The notes under the pieces are model-generated. The model made no database searches, had not been told where the DNA came from, and worked only from the letters and a program-made list of their open reading frames with translations. The position numbers and the translations under genes are program-made. Shown here piece by piece: positions 7,057 to 18,643 of a stretch of DNA of 64,000 nucleotides. This DNA is from an uncultured Acidimicrobiales bacterium (GTDB lineage Bacteria > Actinomycetota > Acidimicrobiia > Acidimicrobiales > Aldehydirespiratoraceae), in contig CAJQPN010000015.1 of the NCBI GenBank assembly GCA_905480195.1, positions 32,785 to 96,784 of the forward strand, in the 5' to 3' direction. How positions within the stretch are numbered: position 1 is the first letter of the stretch; every line of letters begins with the position of its first letter.

Positions 7057-7451
7057 GCGCCGAACCCGTCATCCGGATCGTCCTCGCCAAACTCGGCCTC
7101 GACGGCCACGACCGTGGCATCAAGGTCGTCGCTCGAATCCTGCGCGACGCCGGCATGGAAGTGATCTACCTCGGTCTCCGCCAGACCACCGCATCGATCA
7201 TCGCGGCAGCTGAGGAGGAGGACGCCGATGCCATCGGGTTATCGATGCACAACGCCGGGCACCTCGCCCTCGCTCCGGCGATGCTTGCTGCGCTCGACGA
7301 AGCCGACCTCGACATTCCGCTGATCATCGGCGGCATCGTTCCCGACCAAGACGTCCCGATCCTCGAGGCGGCTGGTGTCGCTGCGATCCTCGGCCCGGGC
7401 GCTCCCGCCGAAGAGGTCGTGGCCGCCGTCCGCAACGCCGTTTCCGCGTGA
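7053..7451 (+). CDS. acyl-CoA mutase small subunit (cobalamin-binding domain)
   Basis: 132 aa with the DxHxxG motif ([11 protein letters not shown]). GTG overlaps the upstream stop (GTGTGA). Confidence 0.9.
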
Positions 7452-7470
7452 CCGGCAGCAGCGACTCGGC

Positions 7471-8415
7471 GTGAGCGTCAGGGAGCTTTCCTCCGCCGAC
7501 TTGGTCGAGCGCGCCATCGACGGCAACCGTCGAGCGATCGGCCGAACCCTCACGCTGGTTGAACGGGGCGGTGAGATCGCCGACCAGATCACCGAACTGA
7601 CCCACCCGGCGGCCAAGGGGTCGCACGTGGTCGGCATCACTGGCGCACCCGGGGCTGGCAAGTCGACGTTGACCGGGCAATTGATCCGCCATCTCCCGAC
7701 GCTCGGCTTGCGACCGGCCGTTCTGGCCGTCGATCCATCGTCGCCGCTCACCGGTGGCGCCATCCTCGGTGACCGGGTTCGCATGGACGATGTAGCGGGT
7801 GACGGCGGGTTCATCCGTTCGGTTGCGACCCGCGGCCATGCGGGTGGGCTCGCCCTGTCTGTACCGGGCTCGGTGCGCGCCTTCGATGCATGTGGGTTCG
7901 ACCCAGTTTTGATCGAAACGGTCGGCGTCGGTCAGGTCGAGGTCGATGTTGCTGGAGCCGCCGACACCACCGTCGTCGTGGTCAACCCGGGGTGGGGCGA
8001 TGCCGTCCAGGCGAACAAGGCCGGTTTGCTTGAGGTCGCCGACGTGTTCGTCATCAACAAGGCCGACCGCGACGGCGCCAACGACACTCGTCGCGACCTG
8101 GAACTCATGCTCGATCTCAGCCATGTCAGCGGTCACGAAGACGAAACGGGCTATCGGCCGCCCATCATCATGACGACGGCAACCGCTGGCGACGGTGTTC
8201 AAGCACTGTGGGACGCCGTCACCGCCCACCGCACCCATCTCGAGGCCACCGGCCAGCTCGAACATCGTCGAGCAGCCCGCTTCCGCTACGAAGTCCGCAG
8301 CCGACTCGGCACACGGTTCGAGGCCTCGATCATCGCGGCCACGGCCGATCTCGAACCTGACGGTCGCTCACCTGCCGCAGTAGCGGTCGAACTGGCTGGT
8401 CATCTTCTGGCCTGA
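7471..8415 (+). CDS. meaB: MeaB/ArgK-type G-protein chaperone for B12 mutases
   Basis: P-loop GITGAPGAGKST and NKADR motif. Start placed at GTG 7471 just after the small-subunit stop. Confidence 0.85.
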   Translation: MSVRELSSADLVERAIDGNRRAIGRTLTLVERGGEIADQITELTHPAAKGSHVVGITGAPGAGKSTLTGQLIRHLPTLGLRPAVLAVDPSSPLTGGAILGDRVRMDDVAGDGGFIRSVATRGHAGGLALSVPGSVRAFDACGFDPVLIETVGVGQVEVDVAGAADTTVVVVNPGWGDAVQANKAGLLEVADVFVINKADRDGANDTRRDLELMLDLSHVSGHEDETGYRPPIIMTTATAGDGVQALWDAVTAHRTHLEATGQLEHRRAARFRYEVRSRLGTRFEASIIAATADLEPDGRSPAAVAVELAGHLLA

Positions 8416-8443
8416 GCCGAGCCTCGGACCTAGGGTCGCGGGC

Positions 8444-9172
8444 ATGGGACGACTCGACGGCAAGCACGTACTGATCACGGGCGGTGCCCGCGGCATGGGA
8501 GCAGCGGAGGCAGCGCTCTTCGTCGGCGAAGGTGCCACCGTGTGCATCGCAGACATCCTCGACGAGGAGGGTGAAGCCACCGCTGATGCGCTCGGTGACG
8601 CCGCCAACTACCACCACCTCGACGTTCGCGACGCTGCCGCCTGGGCGAAGACCGTCGAAGGTTGCCTCGCCTCCTACGGCAAGATCGACTGCCTGGTCAA
8701 CAACGCTGGCGTCTATCGCGAAGGCAACCTTGAGACGACCACAGCGCAGGACTGGGAGTTCCAGATCGGCATCAACCAGACCGGCGTGTTGCTCGGAATG
8801 CAAGCGGTGGCACCGTCAATGCGCGAGAAGCAAGGTGGCAGCATCGTGAACATCTCGTCGATTGCGGGGCTGCGGGGCACGCCGAACTGCATCAGCTACG
8901 GCGCTTCCAAGTGGGCCGTGCGGGGCATGACGAAGAGCGCCGCCAAGGAGCTCGCGCCGTTCAACGTGCGGGTCAACTCGATCCACCCCGGCCTGATCGA
9001 GACCGACATGCTGCCGCTCGTTGGACCACCGGAGATGATGGGCGCAATGGTGCCGCTGGGGCGAACCGCCCACGCCGACGAAGTCGCTGATACGGCGCTC
9101 TTCCTTGCCTCCGACGACTCGAAGTACACGACCGGAACCGAGTTCGTCGTCGACGGTGGCTTCACCGCATGA
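8444..9172 (+). CDS. SDR-family oxidoreductase
   Basis: TGGARGMG cofactor motif and YGASKWAVRG catalytic YxxxK. Confidence 0.9.
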   Translation: MGRLDGKHVLITGGARGMGAAEAALFVGEGATVCIADILDEEGEATADALGDAANYHHLDVRDAAAWAKTVEGCLASYGKIDCLVNNAGVYREGNLETTTAQDWEFQIGINQTGVLLGMQAVAPSMREKQGGSIVNISSIAGLRGTPNCISYGASKWAVRGMTKSAAKELAPFNVRVNSIHPGLIETDMLPLVGPPEMMGAMVPLGRTAHADEVADTALFLASDDSKYTTGTEFVVDGGFTA

Positions 9173-9999
9173 GTGAGTGGACCCGGATCCGGTACGACCA
9201 TCCGGCCGACCGAGTCGCCCGTATCACCCTCGCCCGGCCTGAGACGGCCAATGCACAGGACTACCGCATGTTGTCGGAGCTCAACGAGGCGTTCGACGAG
9301 GCGGCGCGAGATGACGACATCCGCGTCATCGTCCTCGCTGCCGACGGCAACCATTTCTCGTCGGGTCACGATCTGCGTGATGACCCGGACATGGCTGACT
9401 TCGAGCCGGTTGGCACCCAATGTCACTTCGAGGCCGAAGGCGCCGAGGGTTACATGGCTCGTGAGGCCGAGATGTACATCGGGTTGTGCTGGCGGTGGCG
9501 CAACATCCCCAAGCCGACCATCGCGTCGGTCCAGGGCAAGGTCATCGCTGGCGGTCTCATGCTCGTGTGGCCGATGGACATGATCGTGTGCAGCGACGAC
9601 GCCACGTTCTCCGATCCGGTCGTTGCGTTCGGCGTGAACGGCCACGAGTACTTCGTGCATCCCTACGAGGCCGGTCAGCGCCTGGCGAAAGACATGCTCT
9701 TCACCGGCCGGTCGATCAGCGCAAGCGAGGCGCTGCAGCACGGCATGGTCAACCGGGTGGTTGCACGCGACCAACTCGAAACACAGACACTTGCGCTCGC
9801 ATCACACATCGCAAAGCGGCCCATGTTCGGGCTGACCCTCGCCAAGCAGTCGGTCAACAACTCGATGGACGCGATGGGCATGTACACGTCGATTCAATCT
9901 GCGTTCGGGCTGCACCACGTCGGCCACAACCACAACCGTCTCGTGCACGGTGCTCTCGTCGACCCCGAAGGCGTTCAGGTCATTCGCAGCGAGGCATAG
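9169..9999 (+). CDS. enoyl-CoA hydratase/isomerase (crotonase) family protein
   Basis: Crotonase fold blocks (VIVLAADGNHFSSGHDL, GKVIAGGLMLVWPMDMIV). ATGA overlap with the SDR stop. Confidence 0.9.
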   Translation: MSEWTRIRYDHPADRVARITLARPETANAQDYRMLSELNEAFDEAARDDDIRVIVLAADGNHFSSGHDLRDDPDMADFEPVGTQCHFEAEGAEGYMAREAEMYIGLCWRWRNIPKPTIASVQGKVIAGGLMLVWPMDMIVCSDDATFSDPVVAFGVNGHEYFVHPYEAGQRLAKDMLFTGRSISASEALQHGMVNRVVARDQLETQTLALASHIAKRPMFGLTLAKQSVNNSMDAMGMYTSIQSAFGLHHVGHNHNRLVHGALVDPEGVQVIRSEA

Positions 10000-10065
10000 A
10001 CGTCGCCCACCCTGGTTGCAAGCTCGCAGCGAACCCGGACAGGGACACGGTCGGCGTATGGCGCG

Positions 10066-10953
10066 CTAGTGCTTCCGAGTCGGCGCGTCGAGTGGCTGCA
10101 CGTATTGCCAGCCAAACCGGCCCTTGATGCAGAGCATGCCGCTGGTGACCGAGTGGTCGGCCGGCGAGGTGACTTTCACGATCTTGTCGTCCTGGGTGTG
10201 CAGCTCAAGGTTGCAGCCCACACCGCAGTACGAGCACACCGTGCGGGTGACCTCCTGCTCGTCGGGACGCCAGTTGTCGGCCCCGCGAAGGTCGTACTCG
10301 GTCTTGAACTGGATGGCCCCGGTGGGGCAGACAGCGATGCAATTGCCGCAGTAGACGCAAGCCGAGTCGGGCAACGTCACGTCGAACTCGGTGGAGATCC
10401 GCGCGTCGAAGCCCCGACCGCTGACGGCGATCGCATAGGTGTGCTGGGCATCGTCACCACACGCCTCGACACACTTGTAGCAAAGCACGCAGCGGTCGTA
10501 GTCGCGGATGTAGAGGTTGTCCTGGATTTTCGGCGCCTCGCCCATCTTCAATGCGGGCAGCTCGTACTGGTCGTAGCGGCTTGTGTCGGATCCGTAGTGC
10601 TCCATCCACTTCTGGAGCTCGGGTGCCTGGTCGAGGTCGACGCCCGACCCGAGGAACTCGAGCACCATCTTTCGGCTATGCCTCACCCGATCGGAGTCGG
10701 TCTCGACGACCATGTCTTCTTCGGCCGCACGAGCACAGGACGGTGCGAGCGCACGCTGGCCCTCGACCTCCACGACGCATACGCGACACACGCTGACCGG
10801 GGTGAGATTCTCGGCCCAGCACAAGGTCGGCGTGTCGATCCCGGCCGACTCACAGGCCTTGTGGATCGAAGTGCCGGCTGGGACCTCGACGATCTTGCCG
10901 TCGATGGTGAGCGACACGGTGGTCTCGATCGGGGTCTCGAAGGTCGCAGTCAC
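10066..10953 (-). CDS. formate dehydrogenase alpha-subunit N-terminal Fe-S fragment (NuoG-like 2Fe-2S, 2x 4Fe-4S ferredoxin, MopB-type 4Fe-4S)
   Basis: C-x10-C-x2-C-x13-C (LCWAENLTPVSVCRVC...APSC), CVLCYKCVEAC, CVYCGNCIAVCP, and CSYCGVGCNLELH...LCIKGRFGWQYV, then a stop. GTG 10953 overlaps the upstream stop (GTGA). Confidence 0.85.
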   Translation of the reverse strand: MTATFETPIETTVSLTIDGKIVEVPAGTSIHKACESAGIDTPTLCWAENLTPVSVCRVCVVEVEGQRALAPSCARAAEEDMVVETDSDRVRHSRKMVLEFLGSGVDLDQAPELQKWMEHYGSDTSRYDQYELPALKMGEAPKIQDNLYIRDYDRCVLCYKCVEACGDDAQHTYAIAVSGRGFDARISTEFDVTLPDSACVYCGNCIAVCPTGAIQFKTEYDLRGADNWRPDEQEVTRTVCSYCGVGCNLELHTQDDKIVKVTSPADHSVTSGMLCIKGRFGWQYVQPLDAPTRKH

Positions 10954-12722
10954 GAAGGCACCCCCGGGACGATGCCCAGCTCGATGGCGGAGTTGATGGC
11001 GTTGGTCGCCGTATGACCGAAGCCGCAAATGGAGGCGTCGACCATCACTTGGGAGATGTCGTCAACGAGCTGGCGCCGGTCGGGGGTGAGCGACCCCTTC
11101 TGCTGCAGCACGACCATCGTCTCGTGCTGTCGCACACAGCCGATACGGCAGGGGACACATTGACCACAGGACTCGTCACGAAAGAACTGTGAGATGCGCA
11201 CGAGAATGTCGACCATGTCGATCTCGTCGGTGAACGCCATGACCACACCGGAGCCGAGGGTGGTGCCGCGCTCGCGGGCGTGCTCAAGCGTGATGGGCAT
11301 GTCGAGGTACGAGCCATCGACGAACGAGCCTGCAGCGCCGCCCATCAGCACGGCCCTGAGTTCACCGGAACCGGTAAGACCACCGGCCAGTTCGAGAACC
11401 TCACCGAGTGTGGTCCCGAACTCGACTTCGTAGACGCCAGGCCGAGCAACCCGACCGCTGAGGCACAGGAGTTTGGTACCGGGTGAGCGGTCGGTACCCC
11501 GGCTGCGGTAGCCGTCGGCGCCAATCTGCACGATGTCGAGGACGTTCAGCAATGTTTCTGGGTTGTTGATCGCCGTCGGCTCCTGGAACAGGCCGTGGGT
11601 CGTCGGGAACGGCGGCTTGCTGCGCGGTTCGCCCCGGAAGCCCTCCAGCGACGCGAACAGGGCGGTCTCCTCACCACAGATGTAGGCACCGGCGCCACGA
11701 CGGATCTCGATGGTGAAGCGATGGCCCGAACCAGCTGCATCGTCGCCGAGAAGCCCCGCTTCGAGCGCCTGATTGATCGCGTTCTGCAACCTTGCGGTGG
11801 CCAACGGGTACTCACCACGGATGTAGATCCAGCCGTTCTCGGCGCCGGTTGCGAAACCGGCGATGGTGAGCGCCTCGATGACGGCGAACGGGTCGTTCTC
11901 CATGACGACCCGGTCTTTGAAGGTGCCCGGCTCGGACTCGTCGCAGTTGGCGACGACGTGCTTCGGTCGACCCTGCTCGGCGGCGACGGCGCGCCATTTG
12001 ATCCCGGTGGGGAACGCAGCACCGCCGCGGCCAGACAGACCCGAGTCGGCGACTGCGGTACACACCGCGTCAGCACCCATCGCCATCGCAGCGGTGAGTG
12101 CGTCATAGCCGCCGTGCGCGCGGTACGAGGCGAGTGATGTGGGATCGACCACGCCGATTCTTTTCAGGAGACGGAGTGATTCGTCACCTTTCTGGTGGAA
12201 CAGTTCATAGGGCCGCTCGTCGGCTTCGACCCGGTCGGGCCCTCCGACGCCCTGCACGAACTCGGCAACCTCCCCGGTACTGGCGTTGGCTCGCTCGCAC
12301 TGTCCGAGGCACGGCGACTCGTGGACGTTGATGCTCTGGGCCCGCAGTGCAGCGATCCGCTTGCCCGAGCCGGCGATCTGGCACGCAGCATCGACACATA
12401 CGTGGGTGACATCGCCGGCCTGGGTCGGCTCATCGGTGCGAAACAGGTCGTAAAAGGTGGCGACACCGTAGGCCTCGGCCGGTGGGACCTGCAGCGTCTC
12501 GCACACATGATTGAGGCCACCCGGGCTGATCCAACCCTTTGCGTTCTGCAAGGCGTGGAGGGCAGGCAACAACAGGTGTCGATGGTCGTGACGTTTCGAC
12601 GTGCCGGCTCGTACGAACCGCTCGCTCTCGCGTACGACGACGAAACGGCCCCCCAGGGCAGCGTCGACCGCTGCGATCTCGGCGTCATCCGCCATTTCGT
12701 CGGAGATGTACAGGTCAGCCAT
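10950..12722 (-). CDS. fused NuoE-like/NuoF-like NAD(H)-binding diaphorase subunit of formate dehydrogenase (FdsG-FdsB-like)
   Basis: N-terminal thioredoxin-like 2Fe-2S (CVDAAC...CLGQC). NuoF blocks follow: GRGGAAFPTGIKW, ANCDESEPGTFKDR, ESCGQCVPCR. Confidence 0.9.
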   Translation of the reverse strand: MADLYISDEMADDAEIAAVDAALGGRFVVVRESERFVRAGTSKRHDHRHLLLPALHALQNAKGWISPGGLNHVCETLQVPPAEAYGVATFYDLFRTDEPTQAGDVTHVCVDAACQIAGSGKRIAALRAQSINVHESPCLGQCERANASTGEVAEFVQGVGGPDRVEADERPYELFHQKGDESLRLLKRIGVVDPTSLASYRAHGGYDALTAAMAMGADAVCTAVADSGLSGRGGAAFPTGIKWRAVAAEQGRPKHVVANCDESEPGTFKDRVVMENDPFAVIEALTIAGFATGAENGWIYIRGEYPLATARLQNAINQALEAGLLGDDAAGSGHRFTIEIRRGAGAYICGEETALFASLEGFRGEPRSKPPFPTTHGLFQEPTAINNPETLLNVLDIVQIGADGYRSRGTDRSPGTKLLCLSGRVARPGVYEVEFGTTLGEVLELAGGLTGSGELRAVLMGGAAGSFVDGSYLDMPITLEHARERGTTLGSGVVMAFTDEIDMVDILVRISQFFRDESCGQCVPCRIGCVRQHETMVVLQQKGSLTPDRRQLVDDISQVMVDASICGFGHTATNAINSAIELGIVPGVPS

Positions 12723-12731
12723 CGAGCGACG

Positions 12732-14711
12732 TCACTCCCCACCCGCGACGACGAGCTTCTCGACCCGGATCGCTGCAGCCTTGAACTCGGCGGTGCCGGA
12801 GTCGCGGTCCCACTCGTCGTTGGTAATGGTGTTGATGTCGACCAGGTCCGGGAAGTGGAACGTGGTGAACGTGAGCCCGATTGGGATGTCGGCTTGCACC
12901 CGCACTCCCATCTCAACGGACCCACGAGGCGACGAGACGAGCACCCGTTCGCCATCTTCAATACCGAGGCCGGCGGCGTCGACCGGGTTCATGTCGAGTT
13001 CGTCGCCGGAGCGGATCGGACTCTCGAAACCACCGGACTGCACGCCGGTGTTATACGAGTCGAGCGAACGGCCTGTGGTCAGCCGCAGCGGGAAGTCTTC
13101 GGTGAGGTGTTCCTTCGGACCTTCATGGTGGGTGATCGAGAAGGGTGATGGCTCGCGGCCACCCAAATCGTCTTCCCACAACCAACCATGAAGGTAGGGC
13201 GAGCCGGGATGATCTTCGGCCGGGCAAGGCCACTGCAGGCCACCCTCGGCTTCGAGACGGGCGTAGCTCATACCGCCATGCATGGGCGACAACGATCGCA
13301 GTTCGTCCCACAGCTCCTCGGGCGTGGGGTCGCCCCACTCGACGCCCATGCGCCTCGCAAGGTCGCCGATGATCTCGTGATCGTGACGGCACTCACCCGG
13401 CGGCGTCACCGCAGCGCGCACACGTTGCACGCGGCGTTCCGAGGAGGTGACCGTGCCGTCGCACTCGGCCCAGCCGACCGACGATGGGAGCACGACATCG
13501 GCGAGTTCGGCAGTACGGGTCATGAAAATGTCCTGCACGACGAGCAAGTCGAGACCTTCGAGCAGCGTGCGGGCGTGATCGGAGTCGGCCTCACTGTCGG
13601 CGGGATTTTCGCCAATGCAATACGCGGCCTTGATGGTTCCCTCGGCCATCGCCTCGAACATGAGGGTGAGGTGTCGGCCGTCGACCGGGTTGAGCTCCAT
13701 GCCGTAGGTCGCTTCGAACTTGGCTCGGTGCTCATCGTTGGTGACGTCTTGGAAGCCAGGAAACTTGTTCGGCAGCGCGCCCATGTCACCACCGCCCTGC
13801 ACGTTGTTCTGGCCGCGCAATGGCACGAGACCCGATCCCCATCGCCCGATATGGCCGGTGAGAAGCGCAAGGTTGCAGAGCGACTTGACGTTGTCGACAC
13901 CGTTGTGGTGTTCGGTAATACCAAGCGTCCACAGAATCTGCGCCTTGTCGGCCCTTGCGTAGGCGTGAGCGGCTTCGCGGATCGCCTCGGCGGGGACGCC
14001 GGTGACCGCCTCGGCATACTCGAGCGTGTACGGCTCGACGTGGGCCTTGTACTCCTCGAAACCCTGTGACGAATGGGCGATGAACGCCTTGTTGTGCAGA
14101 TCGGCTGCGATGATCTCGCGCCCCATCGCGTTCGCCATTCCCACGTCGGTGCCGACGTCGAGTCCGAGCCACGCGTCGGCGAACTTGGCCGATGACGTCC
14201 GGCGAGGATCGACGGCATACATGGTGGCGCCGTTGTCGAGTCCCTTCAGGACGTGATGGAAGTAGATGGGGTGCGCTTCACGAGCGTTGGAACCCCACAG
14301 CAAGATGACGTCAGCCTCCTCCACTTCGAGGTACGAGGACGTGCCACCCCCCGCTCCGAACACTGCCGCCAGACCGACGACACTGGGAGCGTGTCAAGTT
14401 CGATTACACGAATCGATGTTGTTCGTGCCGAGCGCCGTGCGCGCAAACTTCTGCGCCGCATAGTTCATCTCGTTGGTGCTCTTCGAGCAGCTGAACACGG
14501 CGAAGCCGTCGGCCCCCGATTCCGCCTTGACCTTGGTGAAACCGTCGACAGCCCTGCTCAGCGCCTCGTCCCAGGTTGCGTTGCGCAGAACACCGTTCTC
14601 GCGCACCATCGGGCTGGTCAATCGGGGCAGAGGGTCACTGAACTTCTTGGCCTTGCGCCGCGCGCTATTTTTGGATCCCACGATCCGGAACGGTACCGGA
14701 TCGTGGAACAT
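12732..14711 (-). CDS. formate dehydrogenase catalytic molybdopterin fragment, selenocysteine-containing (UGA 14396..14394 read as Sec)
   Basis: Track ORFs 14394..14816 and 12732..14363 share one frame and are separated only by TGA plus 10 sense codons. Joined, they read GTNNIDSCNRT-U-HAPSVVGLAAVFGAGGGTSSY, the FdhF/FdhA active-site motif. The rest is a MopB molybdopterin oxidoreductase. The start is uncertain (ATG 14816, 14711 or 14609, or GTG 14681). Confidence 0.85.
14353..14396 (-). promoter_or_regulatory. Sec UGA codon plus candidate bacterial SECIS hairpin
   Basis: mRNA: UGA CAC GCU CCC AGU GUC GUC GGU CUG GCG GCA GUG UUC GGA GC. Upper stem GUCGUC/GGCGGC, apical loop GGUCU, lower stem GCUCC/GGAGC. 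The upper stem begins 12 nt after UGA. GGU CUG sits at the same codon positions as in the E. coli fdhF SECIS. Confidence 0.55.
14675..14709. promoter_or_regulatory. 35-bp four-half-site palindrome (two tandem 17-bp GTTCCAC-N3-GTGGAAC-type boxes) at the 5' end of the fdh operon
   Basis: ATCCCACGATCCGGAAC G GTACCGGATCGTGGAAC. It is 27/35 identical to the site upstream of fhs and shares ATCGTGGAACA with the iclR and fhs sites. Confidence 0.55.
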
Positions 14712-14861
14712 GAAGGAATGGCTTGGGGTTCTTTTTGGTCGCTGGCTAACCTTTGGCGCCGTTACTGGTCGGCACGCAAGAGAACGTCGCAGGACGACGC
14801 TCATCCCAATCACCAAGAAGTCGCCTCGCGGTCACGGGGGTAACCGGTACCGTTGCAGGCC

Positions 14862-16568
14862 ATGCGCTGGTCGAACTTCCACACCCCCACGCTGCGCGAT
14901 GCGCCCGCTGATGCCGAGGCCACCAGCCACAAGCTGCTGGTCCGAGGCGGCTTCATGCGTCAACTCCACGCTGGGCACTATTCGATGCTGCCGCTGGGCT
15001 GGCGAGTGTTCCGCAAGGTCGAGAACATCATCCGAGAAGAGATGGACGCCATCGGCGGTCAAGAGTTTCAGCTGCCAACGCTGCACCCCGCCTCGCTGTG
15101 GGCGAAGTCAGGGCGTCTCGACATCATGGGCGACGAGATGTTCCGCCTCACCGATCGCAAGGGTGCGACGAACGTGCTCGGCGTAACCGAGGAAGAAGTG
15201 TTCGCCCTCCTCGCCTCCGAGATCACGTCGTACAAAGCACTTCCGCAGATCTGGTATCAGATACACACGAAGTTTCGCGACGAGCCCCGGCCCAAGAGCG
15301 GCCTTCTCCGCGTGCGCGAGTTCACCATGAAGGACGCGTACTCGATGGACCTCGATCAGGCCGGCCTCGACGTCGCATTCGACCTTCATCACGCCGCCTA
15401 CATGAAGATCTTCGGCCGGATGGACCTGCCCGCAGTACCGGTCGATGCCAGTTCCGGAGCGATGGGCGGCACCGGCTCGACCGAATTCATGGTCCCGTCG
15501 CCTGCTGGTGAGGACGACGTCGTCATCTGCCCGAACTGCGACTACGCGGCGAACATCGAGCGAGCAACCTCTTCGCTTCCCGACCTCGACGATCGCAACA
15601 TTGCCGACCTTCAACGCTTCCCGACCCCGGGGGTTCGAACGATCAAGGCGCTCGAGGATGCCGAGGGTGGCGCACCGGCGCACCATCAGATCAAGACGAT
15701 GGTGATGATGCTTGACGGCGAGGTCACGCTCGCCCTCGTTCGCGGCGACCATCAGCTCAACCTGCAAAAGCTGCAGGACGCTACCGGGGCCATCGACATC
15801 CGACCGGCCACCCCCGAAGAGGCCAACGACACACTGGGCGCGATGCCGGGTTCACTCGGCGCAGTCGGCGTCGCAGGCTTGCGGATCGTGGCCGACCACG
15901 CACTGCACGGGCGTACCGGACTCGCTACCGGCGCGAACGAAGACGACTGGCATTACACCGGCGTCTCCATCGAGCGCGATATCGGGGTCGACGAGTGGGC
16001 CGACTTGCGTGAGGTGAGCGCGGGCGAAGCATGTCCTTCCTGCGGCAAAGCGATCGACATTGTGCGCTGTATCGAGGCCGGGCACATCTTCAAACTCGGC
16101 ACGAAGTACAGCGAGGCGATGGGTGCAAAAGTGCTCGATCCCGACGGCAACCAGCAGGCAATCGTCATGGGGAGTTACGGGATTGGTGTCGAACGAGCCA
16201 TGGCCACCGTCGTCGAGACGTTCCACGACGAAAACGGCATCATCTGGCCGACATCGATCGCTCCGTTCGAGGTGGTCATCACGATCGTGTCGATCAAGGA
16301 CGATGCCTCGGTCGCCGGTGCGGAAGCCCTCTACGACAACCTCAAGGCCCGGGGCATCGATGTACTGCTCGACGACCGCGATGCTCGCGCCGGCGTCAAG
16401 TTCGCCGATGCCGAGCTCATCGGAATTCCCCATCGGGTCACGTTTGGCCCGAAAGCCTTCGCCGACAGCGAGGTCGAGTACACGCCGCGGGCCACCGGGG
16501 AGACCGAACGAGTATCGGTCGACCTCATTGCCGATCGGTTGGTCGACACCATCAGCACTGCTCGCTGA
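14862..16568 (+). CDS. proS: proline--tRNA ligase (bacterial type)
   Basis: MRWSNFHTPTLRDAPADAEATSHKLLVRGGFMRQ is a typical ProS N-terminus, and class II motifs are present throughout. ATG 14862 is preferred over the track TTG at 14853. Confidence 0.95.
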   Translation: MRWSNFHTPTLRDAPADAEATSHKLLVRGGFMRQLHAGHYSMLPLGWRVFRKVENIIREEMDAIGGQEFQLPTLHPASLWAKSGRLDIMGDEMFRLTDRKGATNVLGVTEEEVFALLASEITSYKALPQIWYQIHTKFRDEPRPKSGLLRVREFTMKDAYSMDLDQAGLDVAFDLHHAAYMKIFGRMDLPAVPVDASSGAMGGTGSTEFMVPSPAGEDDVVICPNCDYAANIERATSSLPDLDDRNIADLQRFPTPGVRTIKALEDAEGGAPAHHQIKTMVMMLDGEVTLALVRGDHQLNLQKLQDATGAIDIRPATPEEANDTLGAMPGSLGAVGVAGLRIVADHALHGRTGLATGANEDDWHYTGVSIERDIGVDEWADLREVSAGEACPSCGKAIDIVRCIEAGHIFKLGTKYSEAMGAKVLDPDGNQQAIVMGSYGIGVERAMATVVETFHDENGIIWPTSIAPFEVVITIVSIKDDASVAGAEALYDNLKARGIDVLLDDRDARAGVKFADAELIGIPHRVTFGPKAFADSEVEYTPRATGETERVSVDLIADRLVDTISTAR

Positions 16569-16625
16569 GCAACTCGGCCAGGGACGCAACCCGCCGGTTC
16601 CGAACAAGTCACCCAGCGTCGAGAA

Positions 16626-16662
16626 CTGTTCCACATCGTGGAACAGCCCCACGATGCCATAG
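16626..16662. promoter_or_regulatory. perfect inverted repeat CTGTTCCAC-ATC-GTGGAACAG plus an adjacent weaker box; candidate IclR autoregulatory operator
   Basis: 9-bp arms with a 3-nt spacer (16626..16646), centred 37 bp upstream of the IclR ATG. The next 17-mer in the same 18-bp register is GCCCCACGATGCCATAG. Confidence 0.6.
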
Positions 16663-16672
16663 TGTGAACTGC

Positions 16673-17416
16673 ATGGCCGTGCAGTCGATCGAGCGTGCGT
16701 TCGCCCTCCTCCGGGCGCTTGCGACCGCACCGTACGGTGTGACCGAACTCGCCGAGCAGGTAGATCTCCCCAAGTCGACGGTCGCACGCCTGCTGGGTGC
16801 TCTCGAGTCCGAGGGTGTCGTCACCCAGGACGAGCTCGGCGGCGAGTACCGCCTCGGGGACGGGCTCCTCGATATCGCCGGCGCAGCGCAACCCGGTAGA
16901 AACCTCATCGCAACCGTCCGTCCCTTCCTGCTCGAATTGAGCGAGGAGATCGGTGAGGCAGCCGGCCTCGGGATCGCTCAGAATCGAGAGGTCTACTACC
17001 TCGACCATGCCGTACCCGAGACCGACGTGATGGTCAGGGACTGGACCGGTGAGTCATTGCCGATGCATTCGGTGCCGTCAGGCATGGCGATCCTCGCACA
17101 CATGTCTGCGGCCGCTCTCGAGGCGTACCTCTCGAGGCCGCCCGAACAGCTCACGCCCTACACACTGATCGACCCGGAGGCCATCCGCGAGCGCATCGAT
17201 GCGATCCGTCAGCTCGGATACGCGTGGGGCTTCGAGGAGGGCGTCGACGGGATCAACTCGCTGGCAGCGCCGATCATCGGTCCCGACGGCCTGGCCATCG
17301 CCGCCATTCATGTCCACGGTCCGGCGTACCGATTCCCCAACCCCGATCGCACCCACGATCTCGGGAGTCGCCTCATCGAAGCTGCAAACGGTGTCGCCGC
17401 CCAGCTGAACGACTGA
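16673..17416 (+). CDS. IclR-family transcriptional regulator
   Basis: MAVQSIERAFALLRAL...VTELAEQVDLPKSTVARLLGALE (HTH) followed by an IclR effector domain. The upstream part of track ORF 16031..17416 overlaps proS and is rejected. Confidence 0.9.
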   Translation: MAVQSIERAFALLRALATAPYGVTELAEQVDLPKSTVARLLGALESEGVVTQDELGGEYRLGDGLLDIAGAAQPGRNLIATVRPFLLELSEEIGEAAGLGIAQNREVYYLDHAVPETDVMVRDWTGESLPMHSVPSGMAILAHMSAAALEAYLSRPPEQLTPYTLIDPEAIRERIDAIRQLGYAWGFEEGVDGINSLAAPIIGPDGLAIAAIHVHGPAYRFPNPDRTHDLGSRLIEAANGVAAQLND

Positions 17417-17426
17417 CGATCACGGA

Positions 17427-17444
17427 CTGACGAACCTGCGTCAG
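17427..17444. terminator. small hairpin between the convergent iclR and ligB-like genes
   Basis: CTGACG-AACCTG-CGTCAG. No obvious U tract. Confidence 0.3.
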
Positions 17445-17486
17445 GCGATCACATCACCCCTCGGCGTGACAAAAACAGGGTATGGA

Positions 17487-18320
17487 TCAAATGTCGAGCA
17501 GCCCGAGGTCATAGCTGGCGATCGTGCAGCTCACGGCGAAGATCGGTATCGGCTCACAAAAGTGCACCGTGCCCTGCGCTCCGCCGGCGGCAGCGCTTAC
17601 GGCAAGGAACGTGCGGATCTCGAACCCACCTTGACCGGCGTCGGCATAGACGGTGAGGTCGTCATAGTTGAGGAGTGCGTCGCGGTCATTACGGCACCAG
17701 CGGTCCATGAAGTCGAGGTCCCAGTCGACATTGATCTTCCCGGAATCGGGGGTGGCCGGCCAGTGCGAGATGCCACCGGTGCCGATGATGGCGAGCCGCT
17801 CCGGCACGGCGTCGGCCGCTCGCCGCAAGGCCTCGCCCAATGTCCAGGCCCGATGCAGCGGTGTAAGCGGTGGTCCCTGACAGTTGATGTTGACCGGAAT
17901 CACCGGCAGATCGAAGCGGGGTGTGAGGAAGTGCAACGGCACGGCGATCCCGTGGTCGAGGAGCCATTCCTCAGCGTAGGCAACGTCGACCGTCTGCATG
18001 ATCTCGGAGATGAGCCGGTGCGACAGTTCTCGGTTCCCAGGTGCCCGGAACTTGTCGATCCCGAGCCAGTCCGAGTCTTCGATCGGACCGTCGTAGAAGT
18101 CGGCCATACCGATGGCGAAGCTCGGCATGTTGTTCATGAAGAAGTTTGCGAAATGCTCTGCAGCGATCACGATCACCGTCTCGGCACCACTCGCCTCGAG
18201 GTCGGCACGCATGTCGTCAAACGCGGCATAGAAGGCGTCGCGGATCCCAGGGTCGGCGAGGTGTTTGCGGCCGGTGATGCCCGGTGCGTGACTGCAGACG
18301 CCGGCGTAGACGAGCGGCAT
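17487..18320 (-). CDS. class III extradiol ring-cleavage dioxygenase, LigB-type catalytic subunit
   Basis: LigB/HpcB-like blocks (CSHAPGI, VIVIAAEHFANFF, LLDHGIAVPLHFL, GTGGISHW). ATG 18320 overlaps the upstream stop (TGATG). Confidence 0.85.
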   Translation of the reverse strand: MPLVYAGVCSHAPGITGRKHLADPGIRDAFYAAFDDMRADLEASGAETVIVIAAEHFANFFMNNMPSFAIGMADFYDGPIEDSDWLGIDKFRAPGNRELSHRLISEIMQTVDVAYAEEWLLDHGIAVPLHFLTPRFDLPVIPVNINCQGPPLTPLHRAWTLGEALRRAADAVPERLAIIGTGGISHWPATPDSGKINVDWDLDFMDRWCRNDRDALLNYDDLTVYADAGQGGFEIRTFLAVSAAAGGAQGTVHFCEPIPIFAVSCTIASYDLGLLDI

Positions 18321-18643
18321 CAGCCGCACTCCCCGGTGCCGACGCGCCCGGTCATGGCATAGACCCCTTCGCGCACAGGACCGTGCTCGTCCACCCCATC
18401 GCGCATGCGTTGGAGGTAGTCATGCCACTCGATCTGGTGAAAGGCTGCGAAGTGCATGAGGATCTGACCGTTCACGCCGAGTACGTAGAGCAAGCCGATA
18501 TCAGGATCGACGAGCGCACCGATCTCCTCGTCGCTGAGCGTGTACCCGTCGAGCACGCTGCGACGATCAGAGACGTACGCGGCCTGGAGATCAGCCGACC
18601 GATTCAGCTCGTAGAGGAACTTCTGCACGTAGTAGAGCGACAT
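18320..18643 (-). CDS. LigA-like small subunit of extradiol dioxygenase
   Basis: 107 aa (MSLYYVQKFLYELNRSADLQAAY...LSDEEIGALV...), resembling the LigA domain. ATG 18643 is preceded by GAGGAGGTG. Confidence 0.7.
   Translation of the reverse strand: MSLYYVQKFLYELNRSADLQAAYVSDRRSVLDGYTLSDEEIGALVDPDIGLLYVLGVNGQILMHFAAFHQIEWHDYLQRMRDGVDEHGPVREGVYAMTGRVGTGECG

Follow-up and report, generated by a model that had tools for sequence, protein, structure and literature searches.

The window analysed in this study is a stretch of 64,000 nucleotides from an uncultured Acidimicrobiales bacterium (assembly GCA_905480195.1, contig CAJQPN010000015.1, positions 32,785 to 96,784), and we describe here a formate dehydrogenase (FDH) locus within it. 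The minus strand of 10066..14816 consists of three closely packed co-directional open reading frames (ORFs), which encode a catalytic subunit, a diaphorase and an iron-sulfur (Fe-S) subunit, in that order. The locus is probably a selenium-containing, NAD-linked FDH whose large (alpha) subunit occurs naturally in two pieces, with the halves in swapped order around the diaphorase gene. The features are listed below, where FS0 denotes the MopB-type proximal 4Fe-4S domain, Sec selenocysteine and SECIS the selenocysteine insertion sequence.

12732..14711, minus strand: catalytic subunit, FdhA3-like; MopB domains II-IV with a putative Sec and without FS0 (PF00384, PF01568, TIGR01591 positions 51-672)
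14394..14396, minus strand: putative Sec codon, in-frame TGA in SCNRT-TGA-HAPSV; His comes next, and the Arg of PLRGQNN follows later in the chain
14353..14390, minus strand: SECIS-like hairpin (RNAalifold, 32 sequences) with an inner stem-loop GUCGUC-GGUCU-GGCGGC at 14365..14381
12723..12731, minus strand: intergenic spacer of 9 nt from the catalytic-gene stop (TGA) to the diaphorase ATG, read from the sequence
10950..12722, minus strand: diaphorase, FdhB3-like; NuoE-like 2Fe-2S part fused to a NuoF-like FMN/NAD(H)/4Fe-4S part (PF01257, PF01512, PF10531, PF10589)
10950..10953, minus strand: GTGA overlap of the diaphorase stop codon and the Fe-S GTG start, read from the sequence
10066..10953, minus strand: Fe-S subunit, FdhC3-like, 295 aa; NuoG/FdsA N-terminal module ending in FS0 (Pfam; TIGR01591 positions 1-50)
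10693..10923, minus strand: 2Fe-2S domain, residues 11-87, with Cys45, 56, 59 and 73 (PF13510, Fer2_4); these Cys are invariant in the alignments
10309..10503, minus strand: two ferredoxin-type 4Fe-4S motifs, residues 151-215, CxxCxxCxxxC twice (PF12838, PF22117); Cys invariant
10096..10254, minus strand: FS0, residues 234-286, with Cys240, 243, 247 and 275 (PF04879, Molybdop_Fe4S4, E 4e-21)

An initial annotation, made from the letters of the window and its ORFs, had given the order catalytic, diaphorase and Fe-S on the minus strand, and this agrees with the ORFs, with the Pfam matches and with about 60 of the about 62 informative relatives described below. The two junctions that it had reported, the GTGA overlap and the 9-nt gap, are present as described. 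A Shine-Dalgarno-like GGGGAG can be read inside the end of the catalytic gene just 5' of the diaphorase ATG, and both junctions look translationally coupled. Promoter and terminator scans of 9900-15000 gave nothing exceeding shuffled expectation, and no paralogues of the three FDH genes were found elsewhere in the window.

The two chains of the alpha subunit and their break point

The Pfam content of the catalytic chain is Molybdopterin (PF00384, E 1.6e-69) and Molydop_binding (PF01568) only. The gene has two candidate starts, ATG at 14711 or GTG at 14681, and no Cys motif lies ahead of the in-frame TGA. The NCBIfam model Fdh-alpha (TIGR01591) matches the chain at positions 51-672 with 628.7 bits, the cut-off for the whole protein being 666, and the chain aligns to residues 303-931 of Rhodobacter capsulatus FdsA (6tg9_A) and to 7qv7_S from residue 60 onwards. 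The active-site motifs SCNRT-U-HAPSV, with Sec followed by His, and VPLRGQNNVQG, with the Arg, match the same motifs in 7qv7_S. The signature C/U-H followed by R-G-Q, which is present in this chain, has been assigned to class I (PMC8808070).

The Fe-S chain carries the proximal 4Fe-4S domain that the catalytic chain is missing, as indicated by the profile positions and PF04879. The 2Fe-2S motif, the two CxxCxxCxxxC motifs and the terminal MopB 4Fe-4S motif that had been read by eye on this fragment were all recovered by Pfam, and the translation and the Pfam matches of the catalytic fragment likewise support the earlier statement that it has no Cys cluster of its own before the Sec motif. Nine residues separate FS0 from the stop codon, and the chain ends 13 residues past GRFGW. 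On R. capsulatus FdsA the chain covers residues 24-305. It follows that the two alpha pieces abut exactly, at positions 1-50 and 51-672 of TIGR01591 and at residues 24-305 and 303-931 of FdsA, so that alignment of both fragments to FDH homologues places their ends between FS0 and the rest of MopB, as had been proposed.

Relatives of both chains show the same limits. Their Fe-S proteins end 5-25 residues past GRFG(W/F) with variable tails, while their catalytic chains begin 3-20 residues ahead of the RLTxP motif with a short basic stretch. The cut falls in the loop between the GRFGW strand of FS0 and the RLTxP motif that opens MopB domain II, and the chain ends have the appearance of a surface loop that was severed between these two parts. 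A hidden Fe-S domain in frame 5' of the catalytic gene was considered as a candidate and ruled out, the upstream stretches being short, basic and free of Cys motifs in 66 sequences. The catalytic N-terminus itself (14630..14711 in the window, and in relatives) is short, variable and rich in Arg/Lys, with stretches such as SARRKAKK, RRRRKGR and KRSKRSGR.

A further change in the Fe-S chain concerns the His/Cys3 cluster. In the A4 (N5/A4-type) 4Fe-4S cluster of R. capsulatus FdsA, the ligands are H117, C121, C124 and C130, and this cluster lies off the electron pathway at the dimer interface (PMC7171172). The corresponding motif is deleted at 10618..10659 of the window (residues ~99-112), where R. 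capsulatus FdsA has HPLDCLTCAANGDC and the window protein has GVDLDQAP, and the consensus of the relatives has no Cys at this position. Because A4 is an off-pathway cluster at the dimer interface and its motif is deleted here, the split family probably lacks both this cluster and any dimer contact mediated by it.

The diaphorase has 590 residues and is collinear with the beta subunit of Methylorubrum extorquens FDH1 (7e5z_B, residues 45-557); Cupriavidus necator FdsB (6vw7_B) matched it with 349 bits. The match to the NuoF 4Fe-4S domain ends at residue 581, and there is no C-terminal ferredoxin extension. The solved HydB chains run ~80 residues beyond the match to this protein, and that extra part is absent here.

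The putative selenocysteine codon and the SECIS-like hairpin

Among the aligned related loci, 65 of 66 have a stop codon at the active-site position, the exception (L003) having Gly, and the codon is TGA in all 66 motif-bearing sequences (65 loci and the window). These observations suggest that the in-frame TGA is read as the active-site Sec, and Sec seems to be obligatory in the split FDH family. Contiguous (unsplit) relatives include Cys as well as Sec forms. The members of the split family that use TGA span more than ten phylum-level labels, and many of these lineages are usually regarded as aerobic.

The hairpin lies 15-32 nt downstream of the TGA, and its inner stem of 6 bp starts 15 nt past that codon. 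The GGTCT loop, including the GGT glycine codon, is identical in 31 of the 32 aligned sequences. One stem pair shows a compensatory change (C-G to G-C in 4 of the 32 sequences), and several wobble changes were also seen. The Rfam SECIS_3 match to the hairpin was below threshold (15.4 bits against a gathering score of 63, E 0.85). The hairpin looks like a bacterial SECIS.

Relatives and described enzymes

One genome per GTDB species was scanned for related loci, and the 80 best, at 56-75% identity, were kept. About 62 of these 80 reach far enough upstream to be informative, and about 60 of the 62 have the catalytic, diaphorase and Fe-S genes on one strand in this order. In none of the 80 best species loci does the catalytic gene lie 3' of the Fe-S gene. 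The order is also kept in L001-L004, including distant members at 47% and ~40% identity, and in the Actinomycetospora/Pseudonocardia loci L054, L061, L064 and L080. The contig of one of these relatives (L002) is 3.17 Mb long and, to judge by its name, ptg000052c, may come from a circular long-read assembly, and L008 and L031 are labelled as chromosomes. A search with the Fe-S protein gave at least 120 clusters at 72-91% identity, all ending in PF04879 and 268-312 aa long except for one outlier of 392 aa.

The host labels of the relatives comprise Acidimicrobiia (the closest), Pseudonocardia, Actinomycetospora, Streptomyces (isolates and metagenome-assembled genomes, MAGs) and Thermoleophilia/Gaiellaceae, and further Bryobacterales and other Acidobacteriota, Eremiobacterota, Chloroflexota, Planctomycetota, Verrucomicrobiota, Gemmatimonadales and Bacillota, that is, more than ten phylum-level labels. 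The labelled hosts are mostly of soil, freshwater and marine lineages (Acidimicrobiia, Pseudonocardiaceae, Acidobacteriota and others). The ratio of nonsynonymous to synonymous substitution rates (dN/dS) was 0.12-0.44 for all three genes in five pairwise comparisons, with dS near or past saturation; the three genes are under purifying selection.

Among the 87 loci that were fetched, the operon neighbours include FdhD in 25, formate-tetrahydrofolate (THF) ligase in 8 and a MobA-like gene in 5; the window contains none of these three. In one distant locus (L004, 1868-3216) FolD and a GcvT-like gene lie nearby, which hints at a link to one-carbon/folate metabolism. Another distant locus (L003, 1599-5820) has an Fe-S protein of 47% identity and keeps the gene order; in its catalytic protein Gly stands where Sec or Cys would be (GAGPGHSPG), and the C-terminal Molydop_binding domain seems to be missing. 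From these features it may be a degenerate or re-purposed paralogue. A gap of 0.9-1.3 kb separates the catalytic and diaphorase genes in L035 (3483-4817), L052 (1226-2382) and L053 (4128-4979), labelled Limnocylindrales, Anaerolineaceae and Chloroflexia (Chloroflexota), and the insert of L035 holds a 165-aa ORF.

The annotation of this family in the databases is uneven. The Fe-S protein is variously called HndD, YjgC, NADH dehydrogenase, formate dehydrogenase subunit alpha or 2Fe-2S cluster-binding protein; its annotated start is often over-extended (380-408 aa), and the catalytic gene is often split at the TGA (93 + 542 aa in L002). The Actinomycetospora/Pseudonocardia homologues of the Fe-S protein are 304-408 aa long as called, many of them 310-320, and some are named 'NAD-dependent formate dehydrogenase iron-sulfur protein'. 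Because of this inconsistent annotation and the catalytic gene cut at TGA, the potential for formate oxidation and the demand for selenium of these lineages are probably under-counted.

Rohwerder et al. (2020) described FDH3 of Actinomycetospora chiangmaiensis DSM 45062 as an enzyme of three subunits: FdhA3, a Sec-containing metallopterin subunit of 640 aa with U80; FdhB3, a NuoE/NuoF fusion of 614 aa; and FdhC3, a 'separate but homologous' Fe-S protein of 316 aa that resembles the N-terminal Fe-S domain of the AM1/H16 alpha subunits (PMC7176365). The accessions are WP_084681743.1, WP_018332443.1 and WP_018332444.1, those of B3 and C3 being consecutive. Proteomics detected every FDH3 subunit, at levels that rose 2-3-fold on 2-hydroxyisobutyrate (2-HIBA), and formate removal by A. 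chiangmaiensis needed selenite (PMC7176365). The window has the same three-gene set, with proteins of ~650/590/295 aa compared with 640/614/316 aa in FDH3. In the locus of A. rhizophila (L054) the genes stand in the same order and the Sec falls, as in FdhA3, on residue 80; the proteins of this locus are 56-62% identical to those of the window. The window proteins differ from FDH3 in coming from an Acidimicrobiia-like genome and in being ~56-62% identical to the Actinomycetospora relative. The report on FDH3 is silent on the siting of FS0 on FdhC3, the permuted gene order, the missing His-ligated cluster and the breadth of the family (PMC7176365). FS0 in trans, the strict use of Sec and the loss of the His-ligated cluster appear not to have been discussed in the literature that we searched.

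Known enzymes of similar composition include FdsABG(D) of R. capsulatus and C. necator and FDH1 of M. extorquens (6tg9, 6vw7, 7e5z), which contain the same modules, namely NuoE, NuoF, NuoG-like, FS0 and MopB; NuoE and NuoF are fused in the FDH1 beta subunit too. Their alpha subunit is a single chain of 958-995 aa, whereas in the window it is made as two chains, whose genes flank that of the diaphorase. FdsABG and FDH1 use Cys, whereas the split family uses Sec; the His/Cys3 cluster A4 of R. capsulatus FdsA is deleted in the Fe-S chain of the window, and no FdsD-like gene was seen.

Among solved structures, the catalytic piece is most closely related, at 444-533 bits, to E. coli FdhH (1aa6), FdhF of the Thermoanaerobacter kivui hydrogen-dependent CO2 reductase (HDCR, 7qv7) and F420-dependent FdhA (7bkb). 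FdhF-type enzymes share the Sec/Cys-His and RGQ motifs and also have a catalytic chain apart from the partner Fe-S proteins, but they keep FS0 (about the first 58-63 residues) on the catalytic chain, while here it is on the partner chain. The earlier statement that the break differs from that of FdhF-type systems is therefore borne out, as all the solved FDH chains that matched keep ~58-63 extra N-terminal residues. Formylmethanofuran dehydrogenase is also a MopB-family enzyme whose catalytic subunit is naturally divided between two polypeptides, FwdB and FwdD. That split sets apart the C-terminal domain IV, in contrast to the N-terminal FS0 in the FDH of the window.

Function, rival explanations and origin of the split

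We consider it very likely that the locus encodes a cytoplasmic three-subunit FDH with Sec and a molybdenum- or tungsten-containing (Mo/W) bis-pyranopterin centre, linked to NAD(P)+ and of the FdsABG/M. extorquens FDH1 kind, with the ~950-aa alpha subunit made as two chains. By homology with these enzymes, the Sec-Mo/W centre in the catalytic chain (66-70 kDa, with no Fe-S cluster of its own) would oxidise formate, and the electrons would cross the subunit interface to FS0, the C-terminal domain of the 295-aa NuoG-like chain. From there they would travel along the Fe-S chain, over its two ferredoxin-type 4Fe-4S clusters and its 2Fe-2S cluster, and on to the 4Fe-4S cluster and FMN of the NuoE/NuoF fusion and finally to NAD(P)+. 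The same homology suggests assembly in trans, NAD+ as the acceptor and formate oxidation as the direction. Since the cut is placed in the loop between FS0 and domain II, the complex would be expected to restore the usual alpha fold by non-covalent contacts.

Several observations weigh against this interpretation or against its novelty. The hairpin overlaps strongly conserved coding sequence (the SVVGLA peptide) and has a single clear compensatory pair, and the evidence for a SECIS is limited because this underlying peptide is itself conserved. A tRNA scan found no tRNA-Sec in the window, other genes of the Sec machinery (selA, selB, selD) not having been searched for, and no homologues of FdhD or MobA were found in the window; maturation and Sec decoding must therefore be encoded elsewhere. 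Two loci (L044, 5064-7828, from a Chloroflexi-labelled MAG, and L074, 3669-6424, from a Planctomycetota-labelled MAG) have the diaphorase and Fe-S genes with no catalytic gene within 3.6-5 kb upstream, where unrelated large ORFs are found. We found no purification or structure of this FDH type in the literature searched. The 56-62% identity to the A. rhizophila proteins, the subunit sizes, U80 and the domain description suggest that the window locus belongs to the FDH3 type. The rarity implied in the initial annotation is not borne out, as the architecture is common (about 60 of 62 informative loci) and was described in 2020 as FDH3. This annotation had also named, as a finding that would speak against it, a common and already characterised FDH type: the type is indeed common and described, and this objection applies for the most part. 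The window locus is an ordinary, further member of the FDH3-type family, a common kind of FDH so far documented by genome sequences and proteomics.

With its halves apart and reordered and a TGA inside, the gene could at first sight be taken for a broken one, and gene callers cut the catalytic gene at that codon; the locus could on this account be an assembly error or a decaying, rearranged FDH pseudogene of this genome only. We regard this as having practically no chance of being correct. The same order and break point recur in 80 species genomes, including Mb-scale contigs and labelled chromosomes, the three ORFs are intact with dN/dS of 0.12-0.44, and the TGA and the hairpin are kept. In addition, the orthologous proteins were detected by proteomics in A. 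chiangmaiensis (PMC7176365). Conservation, selection and proteomics together rule out an artefact or pseudogene.

A different possibility concerns the function: the enzyme may not be a plain NAD+-reducing FDH but a bifurcating (Bfu/HydABC-like), NADP+-specific or CO2-reducing one, with the Fe-S chain as a shared adaptor for further catalytic modules as well. The best-scoring solved relatives of the NuoF part do include B subunits of bifurcating hydrogenases and Nfn, and those of the Fe-S chain include HydA1. The two loci with diaphorase and Fe-S genes and no adjacent catalytic gene would suit an adaptor, and the formate-THF ligase and FolD genes that adjoin some loci would fit formate assimilation or CO2 reduction. 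However, the diaphorase stops directly past the NuoF 4Fe-4S domain, the C-terminal ferredoxin domain (2x[4Fe-4S]) of Bfu B being absent, and it is collinear over its whole length with the beta subunit of M. extorquens FDH1, which does not bifurcate; on these grounds a simple enzyme without bifurcation is more likely. The absence of the His-ligated cluster from the Fe-S chain also speaks against this possibility. So do the hosts, which by their taxon labels would be mostly aerobic heterotrophs, and the Actinomycetospora enzyme is associated with formate removal (PMC7176365). Taken together, we think a function of this other kind quite improbable, and the simple NAD(P)+-linked formate oxidation described above is preferred.

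The initial annotation had proposed, as a possible origin of the order, that a (diaphorase)(Fe-S-catalytic) unit was duplicated in tandem and that its two outer ends were then lost. In R. capsulatus the operon is fdsGBACD, where the diaphorase gene is followed by the Fe-S domain, as in fdsGBA-type operons. Compared with this order only the catalytic part has moved, which agrees with a duplication origin. The two halves are also about equally far from contiguous relatives (35-42% identity for the Fe-S part, 29-43% for the catalytic part), and this fits one ancient event in a single lineage. On the other hand, neither the 80 loci nor 150 representatives contain a tandem, a partly deleted or a split-but-unpermuted form. 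The survey of relatives that had been suggested earlier thus gave the permuted split in about 60 of 62 loci together with contiguous forms, and none that is split without being permuted. Moreover, fission followed by relocation of the catalytic gene would end in the same state, as would recruitment of an FdhF-like catalytic module without FS0. The catalytic piece scores 533 bits to the FdhF of T. kivui HDCR and 418 to FdsA, which mildly favours module exchange, although this may reflect rates only. Duplication with permutation is therefore possible, with support no better than that for fission and relocation or for FdhF-like recruitment, and by itself we rate it as rather unlikely.

In the contiguous relatives the Fe-S and catalytic alignments abut as expected. 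The nearest Sec-type contiguous form checked (L088) has 948 aa with U and no adjacent diaphorase. No close contiguous sister was found, all contiguous representatives being about equally distant.

The split family is informative on how molybdopterin enzymes assemble and become loaded with cofactor. FS0 of a molybdopterin enzyme would be able to work from another chain, which may be useful for the engineering of modular CO2/formate catalysts, and the family appears to be strictly selenium-dependent. A more far-reaching proposal is that this is the first recognised case of a pterin-proximal 4Fe-4S cluster in trans among the Mo/W-bis-pyranopterin guanine dinucleotide enzymes, that the split is adaptive, and that the pairing with Sec and the fixed gene order reflect ordered assembly. 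As a joint statement we consider this unlikely. If it were true, the catalytic chain, slow because of its Sec and pterin loading, would be finished first and then clamped by the Fe-S chain. Failure to decode the UGA would then yield a harmless peptide of ~105 aa, and not an Fe-S fragment of ~400 aa able to poison the diaphorase.

The surroundings of the locus were read by eye from ORF translations only. Downstream, at 7375..9999, convergent genes appear to encode a MeaB-like GTPase, a short-chain dehydrogenase and an enoyl-CoA hydratase, and upstream to 18329 there are an apparent proS (14853..16568), an IclR-like regulator and an extradiol dioxygenase-like ORF. In this reading the immediate neighbours (7375..9999 and 16031..18329) appear unrelated to formate metabolism. 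The proS gene also adjoins the operon in 9 related loci with Acidimicrobiales/Acidimicrobiia-type labels, as it does in the window.

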